Of a DNA stretch of 64,000 nt, positions 7,153 through 20,566 are shown one piece after another. The stretch's first letter is position 1, and the number at the start of each line of letters is the position of its first letter. Origin of the DNA: Cetorhinus maximus (taxonomy: Eukaryota); the NCBI RefSeq assembly GCF_964194155.1, contig NC_135902.1, forward strand, positions 10,230,001 through 10,294,000. The letters run 5' to 3'. The notes below the pieces were generated by a model. The model had not been told where the DNA came from and did not search any database. It saw only the letters and a program-made list of their open reading frames with translations. The position numbers were made by a program, and so were the translations under genes.

Positions 7153-8689
7153 CTGTCAATTAAATACATGGAACTAATACATTTTCAACTTGCACTGATT
7201 CACTACAACAATGCCACTAGTATTCATGTGAACATACAAATTAGGAGCAGGAGTAGGCCACTCGGCCCCTCGAGTCTGCTCCGCCATTCAATAAGATCAT
7301 GGCTGATCTGATTGTAACCTTAACTCCACATTCCTACCTAATCCCGGTAGCTTTTTGATAAGCAAGGGGATGAAAGGTTATCTTACAACACTCAGGAAAA
7401 AAATATTCTCATCTCTCTTAAGTGGGTGACCATTGCTAAATATATTTCCTTTCATTTGTCTCAATTTTTACAAGTCTTTTGCTATTTGTGTCCTTTGCAC
7501 TCTCATGTAAAAAAGGCTAATAATTGAATTCTGACAAAATATTTCAAGTGCCATTACTGTTAGGTTTACACATGCAAAACGTATAATTACATGACTATTC
7601 TCCAAACAGTTAATGTTAACACTGAGACTGCTTTTCATTGTTGTCAATGCTACAAATACTGGGCAGGTTGATAAAAGTTGTAGTTCAATCCAGGGTTTTG
7701 AAGTAAATTCTTAGATCATCCAAACGTTGCTTGTGGTTCGAATAGGATCAAAATCCTCCAACCGGGTTTCAATCCTTTCAGGTAGTAACATAACTTTCTT
7801 GAAGTTTCTATCAGGTGGACATTTATGATTATTTTATTAGTGGGCATGTACAATTGTAACGACTTTGAAAATCAAAGAGGCCTACGAGAAACAGAAATTT
7901 AGCCTGCAATGCAAGTTTTCTTCAAAACTAACAGGGGCTTGTCCTGCTGAAAGGATGAAATGAAGGGAAAACTAATGGCCTATATGTCCATAATCCAAAT
8001 AGGATATCTATAGGGAGGCAACCACACACAGTAAGTAGAGATTGGTAAATTGACAGATATTAAGTTTTTTAAAAATATGAAGTCATTATCCTGGCATTCA
8101 CAAACTGATGCCCTGTTGACATTATTTCCCCAGTTCTCATTTTAATTCATTATTGTATTGAGTTATTCTGTACTAACAAGTGGCTTTTGCCTGAGCACCT
8201 GCCTATGCTTTTCTTAAGGTAGAACTAAGGTAACATCTCAAATGGATTCGCCATCATTTTCATTCCCATTCTATGAGGCAACCTAACAATCAGACAATTT
8301 GCAGATAAGGGCACATGTGTAGCATTGAGGGGAAGTAGGGTTAAAGGATTGAGAAAATTAGATCACAAGGTGCAAATAAAAACCAGTTCAAATCTGAAAA
8401 TCATATATATTCAGCTCTAATTTTTATATTTCCGTTGTAGGTTCCTATGCCCACATTTATAATGGGAACAGTCTATATAGACTAGACACAGTGTAATTTG
8501 TCTCCTGTGAATACTGCCAGCAGTGCCAACATGAGGGGAAGTTTATAATTACAACCCAACAGGTTTTACACAGCCTGTTCCATTTTAAATATAGCCATGA
8601 GACTTTTTGAAACGAAAAAGCTTGACAGCAAGTGCACACAAGGTCAAACCGAAACTGCAGTACAAGTAGACAACAAAATAACTGTTTAC

Positions 8690-9311
8690 CTATGGGACTA
8701 TTAAGATTTTCATTTCTGTTGTTTGATTTCAATCTCTGCATAGAATCATGATGTTTCCTGCTGTTCTTTTTCCTTCCCAGAATGCTGAGATCATACGTGT
8801 CAGTTAATATGAAGCGGAATTTAGGAAAAGGGCTAAAATGGTAGCCATAAAACCCCTCAGGATCATCAAGGTCCAAGTCTATCTTTTCGTTGCTGTCCAT
8901 GTTAGCGGAAGGTTTCTCATTTCCCAGGTGCCTGGTGTTGAGAGCTGATTTAAGTAGCAGCTCCCTGTCAAAGTTATAAAACTCGTGGTTTCCCCAGATA
9001 TGGTGCACTGGAGAGCTACACTTTGCAAATTCATTTATTACAGTTTGGAGTGCATCTTCTGAGGACTTTATCTGTGAATTGCAGCCGTCAATGATATCGC
9101 CAAGCTGCAGAATAAACTTGGGGGTGGTAGGTTCTTCATTCCATTCTTTGATAGCACTGCGCAGCAGATGGAGGCTGTTTCTATAGTAACGTTCTCTTGT
9201 CCCCGAATAGTTAAAGCCATTCTCTGTATTAGCATACTGAATGTCTGCAATGACTCCAAAAGTAAAAAACAGGTCGTTTCCGGCTGCCTCAGTCTCCATT
9301 CTTTTAAACAT
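8690..9311 (-). CDS. ADPRM: ADPRM first coding exon
   Basis: MFKRMETE...FGVIADIQYA...LQLGDIIDG...HIWGNHEFYNF...NLNSPI G|gtaaac, with DxQ, GDxxD and GNHE motifs. Exon acceptor ttttttaag| at 9334/9333. The second ATG (9299) has the stronger Kozak context. Joined CDS is 1041 nt = 346 aa. Confidence 0.96.
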
Positions 9312-9904
9312 TTCACTTCCACGTAGCCACCATCTTAAAAAAAAGTAGTAAGTGAAAACAATGACCTGGGTTCAATATAAGACAGGCTACTGACAGTAGT
9401 ACAAGACCAGAGCAAACTGGTTTTATAGCAACACGGTGGTAGGACATAGTTTTATGCTAATTTTGTGGTCTTGGGGCAGACAATTGAGCAATGCTAAGCA
9501 GGTGCAAGTACTGCCCACAGGGAAGGGGAAAACACAGTGAACAACTGCTGTCTAGGCAAGAATAGCTAGCTTTCCAGACCCATTCTAAAATGTAAACCTG
9601 GTTTGGAAAATAGAACTCTCTTTTCTCCCTGTCTACATCTATCTTCCTATGTGAAGGCATTAGCTGTGATTCTTTTCTTTCCCCAAGGCATATATATCAG
9701 CAGCAAAAGATTTCAAGAACAAATGTACAATCCTAGCCCTGCCTGCCCACCCTGCCAGATGATAAAGAACTCGCTATGTGCTGGGAGTTTCCCTGGTGCC
9801 CTGAATGGTAAATCACCCACTCCTACCCCAACCAGAATCATCAAGAATAGATTAACTGTTCAATCATTCCTTTGCCCTCACTTATACCATTGTTACTTCT
9901 AAAC

Positions 9905-11391: not shown

Positions 11392-12545
11392 AACATAAGA
11401 AATAGAAACAGGAGACGACCATATGGCCCATTGAGTCTGCTCCATCATTCAGCACGATCATGGCTGATCTTGGAATTCAACTCAATTTTCCCAACCATAT
11501 CCCTTAATTGCATGAGACACCAAAAATCTGTCTTTCCCAGCCTTAAATGTATTCAATGGTGGAGCATCCACAACCCTCTGGGGGGTGGCTTAGAGGATTC
11601 TAAAGATTCACAACCCTTTAATTGAAGAAATTTCTCCTCATCTCAGTCCTAAGGCACCCTGATCTTGAGACTATGCCCCCGGTTTTAGATTCCCTGAACA
11701 TTGGAAACAATCTCTCGGCGTCCACCCTATCAAGCACCTTCAGAATTTTGTAGGTTTCAATTAGATCGCCTCTCGTTCTTTTAAACTCCAGAGGACATAA
11801 GCTCAATTTGCTCAGCCTTTATTTTAACAAAGAACAAAGAAAAGTACAGCACAGCAGGCCCTTCAGCCCTCCAAGCCTGCGCCGATCATATTGCCCGTCA
11901 ACCTAAAACATTTTGCACTTCCGGGGTCCGTATCCCTCTATTCCCATCCTATTCATGTATTTGTCAAGCTGCCTCTTAAACACCACTATCGTACCTGCTT
12001 CCACCACCACCTCTGGCAGCGAATTCCAGACACTTTAAGGGGTTTCAATTAAGTTATGAAGGACGTGAGGAGCGAGCGCAGAAGAGATTCAGGAGAATGG
12101 TTCCTGGGATGAGAAACTTCGGTTATGAAGATGGATTGGAGAGGCTAGGGCTACACTCCTTGGAGAGGAGAAGGCTGAGGGAGATTTGATAGAGGTATTA
12201 AAAAAATCATAAGGGATCTGGACAGAGCAGATAGGGAGCAACTGTTCCCCCCGTATGGCAGGATCGAGAATGAGGGCGGCCCAGGTATAAAATAATTGGC
12301 CAAAGAAGCTAAAGTGACACGAGTAGAAACTTCCAGTCAGTGGCTGGTTGGGATCTGGAATGTATTGACAGGATGCGGCGAAGACAGGTTCAGTCAAGAG
12401 GCAATGAGCTGATTATCTGAAGAGGATGTGGAGTGTTGTTACAGGAAGGAAGGCATGAGAGAGGCGCACTGGGTGAATTGCTCATTCAGAGGGTCAGGAC
12501 AGACATGATAGGCCGAATGGCCTCCTGCTGGAACCATTCTGCGGT
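11392..12545. mobile_element. Cluster of three CR1 3' fragments (11392-11820 minus, 11828-12035 minus, 12040-12545 plus)
   Basis: ORF remnant LEFKRTRGDLIETYKILKVLDRVDAERLFP...EMRRNFF plus CR1-type 3' UTRs. Confidence 0.8.
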
Positions 12546-12705
12546 TCCCCATTTGGGAAACCGCATCCATTTTATTTATACCAAAAAAAAGCAAACAAGT
12601 CTGTTTGGGCTCCTGGGCCCTGCTCCCACTGAGCAGCGGGACAGGGAAGGTCCAGCCACCCGGAGCCCCGGTGCCCCGGTGCCCAGCCAGAGCCGCTTCA
12701 CTCAC

Positions 12706-12930
12706 CCGCCGCCCTCACACGGCAGCCGCGTCTCCAGGTATAAAACCAAAGAAACTGCGGATGCTGGAAATCCAAAACAGAAATAGAAATACCTGGAAAA
12801 ACTCAGCAGGTCTGGCAGCATCGGCGGAGGAGAGCAGCACCGTTGACGTTTCGAGTCCTCATGACCCTTCAACAGAACTCGTCCCCCTCCCCGCCTCCAG
12901 CCTAACGCGTCAGCACCACCTGCTCGTCAT
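12706..12930 (-). other. ADPRM: Probable non-coding exon 1 of ADPRM (5' end not determined)
   Basis: Consensus donor GGCGG|GTGAGT on the minus strand at 12706/12705, inside a CpG-rich patch next to promoter motifs. The coding exon has an acceptor upstream of its ATG, so an upstream exon is required. Confidence 0.6.
12740..12879 (-). mobile_element. Penelope-like terminal fragment with hammerhead motif, inside the probable ADPRM exon 1
   Basis: Minus strand reads AGTT CTGTTGA A GGGTC ATGAG GACTC GAAAC GTC AACG, followed by the family tail GATGCTGCCAGACCTGCTGAGTTTTTCCAGG. Confidence 0.85.
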
Positions 12931-13040
12931 TTCCGGCAGCTGGTGATTGGAGAAATCCGTCAGTGACGTTGTTATTTCCCATCCTGTCAAACTGCTGCGA
13001 GGGGAAATAACTGCTTCCGGGTTAGTTCAACACCTGGTGA
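12880..13040 (-). promoter_or_regulatory. ADPRM CpG-rich promoter
   Basis: ETS/GABP-like TTCCGG at about 12930 and 13015, CCAAT box (ATTGG at 12946), CRE-like TGACGT at 12964, GC-box-like CCCCGCC; locally high CpG. Confidence 0.6.
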
Positions 13041-13053
13041 CTGTTCCTGGGGT

Positions 13054-13958
13054 ATAACTGGTTGATGGTTATTTCTGAGAATAACTGGTTAATGGTTATT
13101 TCTGAGAATAACTGGTTAATGGTTATTTCTGAGAATAATTGGTTGATGGTTATCTCTGAATAACTGGTTAATGGTTATTTCTGAGAATAACTGGTTGGTG
13201 GTTATTTCTGAGAATAACTGGTTAATAGTTATTTCTGAGAATAACTGGTTAATGGTTATTTCTGAGAATAATTGGTTGATGGTTATCTCTGAATAACTGG
13301 TTAATGGTTATTTCTGAGAATAACTGGTTGATGGTTATTTCTGAGAATAACTGGTTAATGGTTATTTCTGAGAATAACTGGTTCATGGTTATTTCTGAGA
13401 ATAATTGGTTCATGGTTATTTCTGAGAATAACTGGTTCATGGTTATTTCTGAGAATAATTGGTTAATGGTTATTTCTGAGAATAACTGGTTCATGGTTAT
13501 TTCTGAGAATAACTGGTTAATAGTTATTTCTGAGAATAACTGGTTAATGGTTATTTCTGAGAATAATTGGTTGATGGTTATCTCTGAATAACTGGTTAAT
13601 GGTTATTTCTGAGAATAATTGGTTGATGGTTATTTCTGAGAATAACTGGTTAATAGTTATTTCTGAGAATAATTGGTTGATGGTTATCTCTGAATAACTG
13701 GTTAATGGTTATTTCTGAAAATAATTGGTTGATGGTTATCTCTGAATAACTGGTTAATGGTTATCTCTGAGAATAACTGGTTAATGGTTATTTCTGAGAA
13801 TAATTGGTTAATGGTTATCTTTGAGAATAACTGGTTAATAGTTATTTCTGAGAATAATTGGTTCATGGTTATCTCTGAGAATAATTGGTTAATGGTTATC
13901 TCTGAGAATAACTGATTAATAGTTATCTCTGAGAATAACTGGTTGATGGTTATCTCTG
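13054..13958. repeat. 27-bp minisatellite, 33 full units plus 1 partial
   Basis: Unit ATAACTGGTTAATGGTTATTTCTGAGA. Five units are 25-nt variants (...TATCTCTGA). Counted directly. Confidence 0.98.
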
Positions 13959-17020: not shown

Positions 17021-17137
17021 AATGCAGCTTTACTTTGGGGTGTTTGTGCTTAACTTCAACTACGGGTGATGACTAAAGCTGCAATGTGGACAATTAAGTA
17101 AAATAACCCAGCTAGCAAATATTAATGTTTGAATAGG

Positions 17138-17560
17138 TTTTTCCAAAAATATACCTTATTCATGAAATTTGTAGAAGTACATTCCAAAACATATCAAATT
17201 AGACTGATAAGAACAGATTTTTTCTCCAAAATATACTTTATAAAAGTTTGTAAAATTATATGCCCAAACATTTCAAATTGAATTGATAAGAACAGATTTC
17301 CCCCAATAATACTTTATTTATAAAAGTTTGTAAAATTATATGCCCAAACATTTCAAATTGAATTGATAAGAACAGATTTTTCCCCCAATAATACTTCATT
17401 TATAAAAGTTTGTAAAATTATATGCTAAAACATTTCAAATTCGACTGATAAGAACAGATTTTCCCCCCAAATATACTTTATTTATAAAATTTGTGAAAGT
17501 GTATTCCAAAACATTTCAAATTGGACATGACAGAGAGTGTAATGGGATACGACTTTTCTC
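17138..17560 (-). mobile_element. Tandem ~80-bp array of LINE-like 3' ends each abutting a U2 snRNA fragment (Keno/Tx1-like)
   Basis: Four copies of ATT(A/G/C)(G/A)A(C/T)TGATAAGAACAGAT, the reverse complement of U2 nt 38-58 (19-20 of 21 matches). On the minus strand these alternate with ...AATAAAGTATATTTTGG(A)n-type ends. Confidence 0.75.
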
Positions 17561-17629
17561 CTTAAGTTGCACTTTGAAGTTTGAACATTGTTGCAGTATG
17601 TGGTCTCTGCTGTTCACTGATGGTTTTAA

Positions 17630-17719
17630 TGATGTAAGGGAGCCTGGCGGTGTTGCTGGTGGGAGGAGGCTCCCAGTCTGTTTCCGGATCTGCTGCACGA
17701 AGGTTATACAGTGTGCACC
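17630..17719 (+). promoter_or_regulatory. SCO1 proximal promoter / 5' UTR
   Basis: GC/CpG-rich stretch with ETS-like TTCCGG (about 17682) just before a Kozak-context ACCATGG. Confidence 0.55.
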
Positions 17720-17881
17720 ATGGCGCTGATGGTGCAGCTGCTGTGCAAACGGACGAGCGCCGTGTCCAGAGCGTTTAATCGGAAAGTTTCCTGCGTAACC
17801 TCTTTTTACTGCAGGGTCAGCGCCAGGCAATGCTGCCGCCCGAATTTACTGGCAGCGAACCCGCTGTGCCCAACGAGACCG
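17720..17881 (+). CDS. SCO1: SCO1 exon 1 (mitochondrial targeting peptide)
   Basis: ACCATGG start. Translates MALMVQLLCKRTSAVSRAFNRKVSCV...PTRP, Arg/Ser-rich with no acidic residues. Donor CCG|GTGAGT; 162 nt, phase 0. Confidence 0.85.
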
Positions 17882-18465
17882 GTGAGTTTCAGACCCAGGA
17901 AATGCTAAACACTCAGCAGATGCATTGCCAATGAATAAAGGTTTCAGAGAAACAAAAATGACCTGAGTTGTACTGAGCAGCATTGTTTGAGCCCATGTGT
18001 AGCTAATACGTCCACAACGCAAGGCACATGAATAAGGAAAGGGCTGATCTCTGGAAACTAATGTTTGATTTGTGAGTTTCCAGTCAGGCATGGGGAAAGG
18101 GCTGAATATCTGGAGTTCAGTCTGTTTCATGTCTGGCTTGTGTCAATTTGCAGGTCACCCAGAGGCTGGAGGATTAACAATCACAAATTCAAAGTTTTGT
18201 CATTGCTAAATACGCTCAGGGTGAGGGTGTGGGCGAGGGTGTGGGCGGTGCCTGTTGCTCCCTGTGAGAATTCACCAATTATCAATGAGGATACAAAGTG
18301 TGACGAGGGGCAGCATAATTGGAGTTGGCAGTGTCAGTGTTTGGCCTTGGTAAAATGTAAATTAGAGCACCATTGTGGTGTGGAGTGATATTTAAAGGGC
18401 GGTTTCTTCATCCACTTAAGCAACCCAAGCACTTACTGCAGTGTTTGTTTAAAAATACGGGAGGT

Positions 18466-18535
18466 GTCAGCTGTGGCTCAGTTCATAGCACCCTCGCCTT
18501 TGAATCAGAGGGTTGTGGGTTCATGTCCCACTCCC
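18466..18535 (+). mobile_element. tRNA-derived SINE head fragment
   Basis: GTCAGCTGTGGCTCAG...GGTTGTGGGTTCATGTCCCACTCC, similar to the heads at 5203, 10530 and 19458. Confidence 0.7.
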
Positions 18536-18592
18536 GGAAAACCAAGAACTGTGATTGTGCTCAAAGAGTTGCAAGCAACAAGATGGTTCTTG

Positions 18593-18665
18593 AACCGGCT
18601 AGCTCAGTCGGTAGAGCATGAGACACTTAATTTCAGGGTCGTGAGTTCGAGTCCCACGCTGGGCG
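18593..18665 (+). pseudogene. tRNA-Lys(CTT) pseudogene in SCO1 intron 1
   Basis: 73 nt matching canonical vertebrate tRNA-Lys-CTT with about 7 substitutions: acceptor positions 1-2 are AA, U33 is A, and the T-stem has a mismatch. No oligo-T terminator follows. Confidence 0.85.
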
Positions 18666-19457
18666 CAATAATATTCTTCAGTATTGGTCAGAAATTGGAG
18701 CTCTTTCTGTAGGCATATGTTTACAAAATTGCCCCTTGCCTGGCAAGAGTATGATTAGCAGCCCCAAAACAACATAAGAGGTGCCAACTGAGCTCTTTGG
18801 GCACTACTCTTCGACAAGTGGGGTAATATTATTACAAACTGGCAAAATGATGCAAAGATGTTATTGAATAGAAAATTGAGACAACAGTAATGCAATGACA
18901 ACTGTTCCGGGAGTAGAGAATTTACCTGAAGCTTCTGTAGTTTCTAATTTATCCTCTTGTACCTTAATTGGTGCAAATTTTAATGCCACAAGTAATATGA
19001 GTGATTCATGACTGCACTATAGGCCTCCGGCTGCTTACAGGTAGAGTATACGGCTACAAGAAGTAAAATCTTTATTTTGTAACTTTGCATTTAAAATAAA
19101 CATTGCAGTTTGTATTAAATCTTTAGTAAGAAGGGCTATTTTACTGAATGCCAGAGATATTAGGACTAAATATTCATTGGATCATTTTGAAGATATCTTG
19201 TATAGATAGTATAAGTGTTAGATTTTGTCAACTTAGTTTCAATGAAATAAACTTCCTTTCAAATAGTATTGTTAAATGAGCTATTCGGTTTATCCAAGAA
19301 CTGGATATCTATATCATGGTGGGTGTACAGCTTTGTTTACAATGGCTTTGCAATGATTTTGGAGCCAAAAGTTCACATGACTGGTCAAGCTACAGTATCT
19401 CGAAGATGTTAGAATTCCTGGTCAGGGCGTTGGCCTACAATGTGTTTTGTTTTCCTA

Positions 19458-19805
19458 GTCAGCCTTGGCTCACTGGCAGCACCCTCACCTCTCACTCGGA
19501 GGTTGTGGGTTCAAGCACTGCTCCAGGACTTGATCACAAAATATAGGCTGAGACTCCAGTGCTCTGCTGAGAGAGTGCTGCGTTGTCAGAAAGGCCATCT
19601 TTTGGATGAGGCAATAGACTGAAGCCCAGTCTGCCTGCTCGGGGGGATGTTTGAGATCCTGTGGCCTATTCGGAGAAGAAGACACTCCTAGTGTCTTGGC
19701 CAATATTTATCCCTCTATGAATATCATTTTAAGCATAGCAGAATATTTAGCTATTATCTCATAACTATTTGTGCGATTTTGTTGAGTGCAAATTGGTTAA
19801 CTGTG
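19458..19805 (+). mobile_element. Deu-type tRNA SINE
   Basis: Same head and core as the copy at 10530. Confidence 0.7.
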
Positions 19806-19809
19806 TTAA

Positions 19810-20455
19810 AGAACATAATGTAAGAAATAGGAGCAGGAGTAGACCAGACAGGTCCTTCAAGCCTGTTCTGCCATTCAGTATGGTTGATCTTCTGCCTCAA
19901 CTCCACTCCCCATGTGCCAAGATTGCCTGAAAGACCAGAAATCTGTCTATCTCAGCCATAAATATGCTTAACGATGGAGCAACAACAACCTCTGTGGTAG
20001 AGAATTCCAAAGATTCACAACCCTTTGGGTGAAGGACTTTCAGGTCACCTCAGTTCTAAATGATCGGTCCCTTATCCTGCGACTGTGTCCCCGTGTTCTA
20101 GATACGCCAGTCAGGGGAAACAACTCCTCAGTGTCGGCCCTGTCAAGCCCCTTCAGAATCTTGTATATTTCAATGAGATCACCTTTACTCAGCCTCCCAT
20201 CATAGGACAACCCTATTACCCTAGGAGCAGATACAGTGAGCCTTCGCTGTACCACCTCCAATGCAAGTACATCCTTCCTTAAATATGGAGACCAAAACTG
20301 CTCAAAAGTACTCCAGGCGTGGCATCACCAAAGCCTTCTACAATTGTAGCAAGACTTCCTTATTCTCGTACTCCAATCCCATTGCAATAATGACCAGGGT
20401 ACCATTTGCTTTGCTAATTGCTTGCTGTATCTGCATGCTAACCTTCTGTGTGTTT
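19810..20455 (-). mobile_element. CR1 3' fragment
   Basis: ORF remnant EVVQRR...GDLIEIYKILKGLDR...RTRGHS. Confidence 0.8.
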
Positions 20456-20566
20456 GCATACAAAACATCAATCACTCCACATTAAAAATAATTCATTGTG
20501 CTTTACAATGTGCTGAGTATGTGAAAGGTGCTTATTAATTGCAAGGTTTTTTTCATGTTTCTACAG

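Follow-up and report, generated by a model that had tools for sequence, protein, structure and literature searches.

The window, by which we mean the whole 64-kb stretch of Cetorhinus maximus DNA analysed here, contains the gene SCO1 in seven coding blocks between positions 17720 and 33956. The first coding exon (17720-17881, plus strand) encodes 54 amino acids that are 100% identical to the SCO1 homolog of Cetorhinus maximus, and lies outside the relic that is the subject of this analysis. A metallophosphatase exon, probably of an ADPRM-like gene, is found on the strand opposite to SCO1 at 8460-9371. Between this gene and SCO1, which are arranged head to head, there are two CpG-rich stretches 4.5 kb apart (12500-13050 and 17500-18000), and, beside the first of them (12500-13000), a 27-bp minisatellite of about 34 copies (13054-13958). 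The first SCO1 intron (17882-20566) contains a single tRNA-like match that exceeds the gathering score of Rfam and is probably the head of a SINE.

A tandem array without any ORF is located 120-580 bp 5' of the SCO1 ATG (17720). An earlier note on this DNA had described it as a tandem array of U2 snRNA fragments and retrotransposon ends with a unit length of about 80 bp, and TRF bore this out (array from 17147 or 17168 to 17523, period 82, 4.4 copies, 86% matches). The note had counted about 4.7 units. Read on the minus strand, the array consists of five LINE 3' ends, the first of them longer than the others, which alternate with four scraps of U2 nt 38-53. The whole compound relic, i.e. a long LINE 3' piece followed by four repeats of a U2 spacer and a short LINE 3' end, occupies 17138-17598 of the minus strand, with a 5' limit between 17564 and 17598. 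It measures about 460 bp, and its element units are 63-nt ends. An assembly artefact was considered and rejected, because the units differ from each other by 4-16 substitutions.

All pieces of the relic are on the minus strand and are described in this orientation. The first, E1 (17460-17564), is a longer 5'-truncated 3' end of an old Keno-like subfamily, with an AATAAA signal and a G/A tail. BLAST aligned it as far as 17564 with a majority sequence built from the 3' ends of 29 dispersed copies (84% identity, E = 3e-25). A possible extension to about 17583-17598, taken from a local alignment that reaches 17598, is weak, and the part of E1 upstream of the tail scored 33, equal to the best of 200 shuffles (33). 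U2 spacer 1 (17444-17459) is a 16-nt unbroken match to genomic U2, with the A of nt 38 common to the spacer and the LINE tail. It is followed by E2 (17378-17443), a short LINE 3' end of the E1 type with changes that are also present in E3 and E4, and by U2 spacer 2 (17362-17377), which has one change that recurs in spacer 3. Next come the short LINE 3' end E3 (17298-17361), U2 spacer 3 (17282-17297, placed by comparison with U2), the short LINE 3' end E4 (17219-17281) with a small deletion, U2 spacer 4 (17203-17218), again with a 16-nt unbroken match, and the last short LINE 3' end, E5 (17138-17202). The source copy of E5 differs from that of E1-E4: E5 is 75-82% identical to these units and 94% identical to the subfamily majority sequence. 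The DNA that follows this fifth and last LINE end is not U2.

For comparisons with U2 we used a U2 gene of the same genome (L062, 190.5 bits with Rfam RF00004), in which TCTGTTCTTATC begins at nt 39. Against U2 nt 38-58, the stretch named in the earlier note, the four scraps match at 19, 19, 19 and 20 of 21 positions (17459-17439, 17377-17357, 17297-17277 and 17218-17198, respectively). These counts stand, but the unbroken match from nt 38 is just 16, 14, 14 and 16 nt long, and the closing AAT of each scrap also fits the LINE piece (CAATTTG). The spacer therefore corresponds to about U2 nt 38-53 plus microhomology, and not to the full nt 38-58. It starts at the U2 insertion site, and its 14-16 unbroken nucleotides are within the range of the target duplications of the LINE family, which a script determined as 14-18 nt at 6 loci. 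By these features the spacer appears to be a duplication of the element's target, as in tandems of transposable elements that arise by double insertion. Rfam searches of the window gave no U2 (RF00004) match at gathering or E-value thresholds, probably because the pieces in the array are too short. A U2 snRNA gene or pseudogene was rejected on the same result.

The four junctions of the array all restart at one LINE base, whereas 12 other junctions of the family use 11 different points. The array junction is unique to the SCO1 locus in the genome; a fifth match to the pattern is unrelated. In a tree of 43 rows and 65 columns, for which the old copies had been chosen by their likeness to the array, E1-E4 form a group (94/82), and E2-E4 form a group within it (95/86). 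E5 stands apart, and most other forks are open. A tree of the units with genomic copies had been proposed in the earlier note, and this outcome is the one that tandem duplication predicts for E1-E4. The units E1-E4 share two changes, one of which recurs in 2 and the other in 3 of the 29 other copies, and E2-E4 share two more, present in none of the 29. Two units, E3 and E4, have 61 identical bases in common. Most pairs of units differ by 6-16 substitutions, and the closest pair differs by 4. The common restart, the grouping of the units and the shared changes fit the expansion of one dimer in place, which was one of the two origins offered in the earlier note, and are what one junction repeated by unequal exchange would leave. 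A dimer of the form E1-spacer-E5 would give the observed pattern of units if it misaligned close to where the 60 nt common to both ends begin.

The non-U2 part of the array was used as a query against the 4-Gb genome. All 40 matches scored among 1039 candidates were further matches of the same kind, and the 29 that were read proved to be the 3' ends of an old LINE subfamily with dispersed copies. U2-like DNA follows just one of them (L002), which represents a decayed U2 junction in the old subfamily. At 17 of the 29 old-copy loci, tblastn found matches to ORF2 of a young sister subfamily, one of them on the opposite strand. The young element is about 5.26 kb long, and its copies are 99% identical. 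Its ORF1, scored on L092, has two ZCCHC3-like RNA-binding domains, and its ORF2 (L100) has Exo_endo_phos (1.7e-16), RVT_1 (1e-37) and zf-RVT domains, the APE domain being at residues 27-234. The nearest solved relative of ORF2 is L1 ORF2p (E = 6e-88); R2 proteins were found with E = 5e-20. The CX2CX4HX4C knuckle was not found in the single ORF1 examined, which looks frameshifted, and no hit named Keno or Tx1 was found among 90 homologues or in the Atlas clusters.

The array is linked to this APE/RT element by homology of the 3' ends. Placed by its likeness to the L1 group, the LINE of the array can be classed as an L1-group, APE-type, Keno-like element. Identity with Utopia was ruled out, because the endonuclease is of the APE type, and L1 is closer than R2. 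The view of the earlier note that the non-U2 part is a retrotransposon 3' end is supported: it belongs to a family of LINEs that encode an APE endonuclease and an RT. Relatives in this family join U2 at nt 38/39, where both of the elements named in the note, Keno and Utopia, insert; the type of enzyme excludes Utopia.

A pattern of LINE tail plus U2 nt 39 matched 159 times in the genome and 0 times as a reversed control, so that the junction is not a chance occurrence. Among the 100 junctions listed of these 159, 85 continue as U2, and 15 have 13-20 nt of U2 followed by another piece of the element. The junctions that continue as U2 are almost all (83 of 85) on C29, C30 and small contigs, and clusters of U2 genes are found there too. 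Compared to 3270 young tails in the genome, however, there are at most 159 junctions of all subfamilies. U2 followed none of 30 sampled young tails, all on C1, and 8 of the 30 begin TCT. In the old subfamily, the U2 core followed 1 of 351 exact tails. Decayed junctions are underrepresented in all these counts, because exact patterns miss them. The U2 junctions of the old subfamily are those of the window, of L114 and of the decayed L002. Of the patterns for an old-subfamily tail plus U2, one found the window alone, another added two junctions of young copies and what seems to be a chance match, and a looser one found L114. A family has been treated as target-specific if more than 20% of its flanks are the target (PMC4494074). 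The family described here is Keno-like at the U2 junction, yet it stays below this share and is mostly dispersed. The earlier note had missed that the array's own subfamily is almost wholly dispersed.

Three of the 15 junctions with a short U2 piece (again among the 100 listed) are in the window, and 12 are elsewhere. At three of the 12 (L032, L102, L173), U2 continues beyond the last copy, as expected if the junction of one copy is hit by another whose insertion duplicates the target. At six others (L033, L034, L035, L037, L038, L045), the last copy is followed by unrelated non-U2 DNA, and at the remaining three (L031, L036, L041) there is no second tail in view. Further dimers with non-U2 DNA after the last copy were found at L148 and at the old-subfamily locus L114. 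Dimers with a U2 spacer are thus located both in U2 clusters and far from U2. Six loci of the latter, exported type were tested for flanking duplications. At L033 and L153 (the same locus as L038), the whole dimer is inside a non-U2 duplication of 16 and 17 nt, respectively. No long flanking duplication was found at L151, L155 and L114, and L039 has just 7 nt.

Two of these loci, L033 on C6 and L034 on C8, share one junction, which was found at those two places alone. The first copy is full-length at L034, and about 95 nt of it are present at L033. A source dimer with this junction at a U2 gene was not found. At L039 (C24), a dimer is followed by U2 38-187, a trailer and poly(A), with the 7-nt repeat on both sides, i.e. 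the locus has the appearance of an exported read-through RNA. The presence of dimers at and away from U2, the shared junction and the structure of L039 show that a dimer formed at U2 can travel within a single RNA. Read-through at LINE 3' ends is established. Dimers have also formed by local double insertion at five loci (L123, L134/135, L147, L149, L150), where the spacer, read by eye, equals the downstream flank. In the array of the window, the flank after the last copy does not equal the spacer.

The survey of loci also revealed other arrangements of elements and snRNA sequences. The spacer between the two copies at L147 (C1:65663000-65664500) contains a putative U6-like sequence, which we presume to be U6 snRNA, and the locus may thus be a U6-LINE chimera. 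In a full-length copy at L098 (C24:35325000-35334000), within a chain of copies, the U2 head is doubled: nt 3-34 and nt 4-37 are separated by about 56 other bases. On C29 (e.g. L093, C29:272000-281900; L046-L060), a second subfamily together with a diverged U2 3' half is repeated many times, in units spaced about 4.28 kb apart. Tandem runs of a truncated element, U2 38-191 and a trailer, about 3.5 kb apart, are found at L092, L095 and L101-L103 (C29, C424). With their one common restart point, they represent an array like that of the window, but larger and situated within clusters of U2; some of their units have long open frames that extend from the U2 flank into ORF2. At L075 (C12) and L081 (C10), a full U2 sequence has an A-rich tail and repeats on both sides; these dispersed copies are processed U2 pseudogenes.

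The sequences around the relic in the window were compared with each other and with U2. A candidate target-site duplication, decayed if real, has its upstream half at 17574-17587 and its downstream half, which is also faintly U2-like, at 17122-17135 (both on the minus strand). The two halves match at 11 of 14 positions, which is weak: 170 of 5000 random pieces of the window equalled the score (p ~0.03). The 3' flank of the array gave a weak, gapped alignment to U2 39-63, with a score that was reached by 3.25% of 2000 random pieces of the window. Upstream of E1 no U2 5' part was found, the best match being 6 nt long.

We consider it rather probable that the spacer is a target duplication that originated in a U2 gene and left it within a read-through RNA, and that the dimer then expanded near SCO1. 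In the U2 gene, a Keno-like copy would already have been present, and a second one, heavily 5'-truncated, would have inserted at its 3' junction. Because the cut was staggered, U2 nt 39 to about 53 would have been duplicated, resulting in the order copy, tail, U2 spacer and short copy. An RNA would then have ignored the poly(A) signal of the first copy and terminated at that of the second, and would have been reverse-transcribed, with 5' truncation, into a non-U2 site near SCO1. Import as a 5'-truncated read-through RNA would explain why the spacer is present without the rest of U2. Finally, LINE ends about 80 bp apart would have misaligned, and slippage or unequal exchange would have added three units with E1-type sequence. 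Two broken copies and a 16-letter U2 scrap most likely arrived as one piece, which was then duplicated in place.

The expansion is evident from the array units themselves. The two earlier steps are documented for relatives, and by analogy we infer them for the SCO1 copy. The source form, in which the last copy precedes full U2, exists at L032, L102 and L173, and the exported form at 8 loci including L114. In the window, import is suggested by the flank that is not the spacer, by the lack of a U2 5' part upstream and by the candidate 14-nt duplication. Against import, the flank is faintly U2-like, the candidate duplication is weak, four of the six exported-type loci tested have no long duplication either, and U2 junctions are rare in the old subfamily. 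A source dimer with the array's own junction was not found in the genome.

The array could also have originated on the spot, if a U2-like site near SCO1 had been hit twice, the flank had since decayed and the dimer had then expanded. The weak alignment of the 3' flank to U2 would fit such a site, double insertions of this kind are common in the family, and L031 and L002 are insertions into dispersed U2-like DNA. However, 14-16 nt in each spacer are still identical to U2, the flank can be aligned only with gaps and several changes, the region upstream of E1 has no U2 5' part, unlike L031, and the candidate duplication around the relic differs from the spacer in sequence. We therefore regard a local origin as unlikely. 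A template switch seems somewhat less probable still. In this case, the reverse transcriptase would have copied about 63 nt of one RNA, moved to another element RNA that extended into U2, and acquired the spacer from it, with expansion at a later time. The AAT microhomology at the junction is compatible with a jump, and the family does contain odd chimeras, such as L036, which restarts internally, and L098 with its doubled head; template jumping is given as a mechanism in PMC4494074. On the other hand, the spacer lengths of 13-20 nt match target duplications, the same structure is found before full U2 at L032, L102 and L173, and the occurrence of one junction on two chromosomes requires the dimer as the template. 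Four or five independent insertions with regeneration of the target each time, the other origin offered in the earlier note, would suit the age of the units, as judged from the differences between them, and E5 is indeed an independent copy, but this origin is very improbable and largely refuted by the identical restart of all four junctions, the derived changes common to E1-E4 and to E2-E4, the 61 bases that two units have in common, and the lack of a U2 5' part upstream.

Of the GATA motifs that the earlier note had pointed out, four WGATAA sites are indeed present 274, 356, 436 and 515 bp before the SCO1 ATG, but the motif is the reverse complement of the U2 scrap, and WGATAA occurs 112 times (40 + 72) in the 64-kb window. 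The motifs in the array are a by-product of the U2 scrap, and the product of the expansion is probably an inert minisatellite. Human ADPRM and SCO1 have one short promoter in common. In the shark, with its two CpG-rich stretches, this shared promoter may be split, or SCO1 may have a 5' non-coding exon. The array may be part of the SCO1 promoter, but it may also belong to a 5' intron or separate two promoters. It is hardly credible that a role of the GATA sites in regulating SCO1 or ADPRM led to the retention or expansion of the array: all four sites have survived even though two spacers carry a change beside the motif, but the motif came with the scrap and is frequent in the window, the units are decaying, and the array may lie outside the promoter.

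Full-length copies of the young subfamily begin with U2 nt 1-34/37. A U2 promoter before this head was found in 0 of the 7 U2-headed copies examined first. A pattern search identified seven more copies. Four of these, on C1, C10 and C22, start at U2 +1 without the U2 upstream region, and the other three (L222-L224, at C424:235241, C713:113885 and C877:96265) are located directly behind an intact U2 upstream region (100/100 match). Their position suggests that L222-L224 are candidate master copies driven by U2 promoters. U2 genes might then act as launch pads and not just as the target, an idea for and against which we see the case as evenly balanced. A few masters behind U2 promoters would be transcribed from the U2 start, and with read-through into adjacent copies and remnants of U2 they would give rise to thousands of scattered progeny that export U2 heads, spacers and 3' halves. 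Exported dimers would seed distant minisatellites, one of them at the 5' end of SCO1, where it would have added a cluster of GATA motifs.

Keno, a member of the Tx1 clade, is an APE-type element that targets U2 (Kojima and Fujiwara, 2004, cited in PMC4640811, PMC4494074 and PMC6136364). Keno and Utopia join U2 at nt 38/39, followed by TCTGTTCTTATCAGTTTAAT (PMC4640811, PMC6136364). The shark element resembles Keno in having APE and RT, and in a 3' end that abuts U2 nt 38/39 and is followed by TCTGTTCTTATCAGTTTAAT. Unlike Keno, it is mostly dispersed, it has in its full-length copies a mobile head of U2 nt 1-34/37, and it exports scraps of U2 in the form of spacers. Utopia is of the RLE type, with a restriction-like (PD..D/ExK) endonuclease, and uses the same U2 site, has 20-bp duplications in reptiles, is occasionally tandem in U2 genes in the case of Utopia-1_NVit, and includes some weakly specific families (PMC4640811). 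The U2 3' junction of the shark element is the same, but its N-terminal APE domain and its closeness to L1 ORF2p rather than R2 set it apart. Copies of R1 in Drosophila are separated by a 33-nt rDNA duplication and have been expanded by unequal exchange; both the origin of the R1 dimer and its expansion are presumed to have taken place in an rDNA unit (PMC5932611). Like R1, the shark array is made of tandem, often 5'-truncated non-LTR copies with a target-duplication spacer from a multicopy RNA gene. Unlike R1, it is small, consists of 63-nt element ends and lies on a chromosome arm without a surrounding U2 gene. Tx1-11_Crp, a crocodilian Tx1-type element close to Keno, has a U2-derived 5' head (PMC4494074), as does the young shark family. 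The array itself, unlike SINEU and Tx1-Mar, has no U2 head; its U2 pieces are found between element ends. Membership in SINEU, which consists of dispersed non-autonomous elements whose 5' head derives from U1 or U2, was rejected, the U2 pieces of the array being internal (nt 38-53) and the junction unique to the SCO1 locus.

Keno insertion at U2, dimers with target duplications and the expansion of dimers are all known already. Each step of the proposed path has a precedent, and the combination was not found in print. The literature searched contained neither a shark Keno nor exported U2 spacers; shark Keno families may be filed in Repbase. The array carries a lesson about spacers that runs contrary to the usual reading of transposable-element dimers. 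A target-site duplication can leave its target inside a read-through transcript, and since the duplication can travel in this RNA, a scrap of an RNA gene between tandem retroelements need not mark the place of insertion. Beyond the array, a LINE that aims at U2 may keep its masters at U2 promoters while most of its progeny scatter, which bears on the survival of elements at low-copy targets, and the young family bears on how snRNA-headed SINEs arise.
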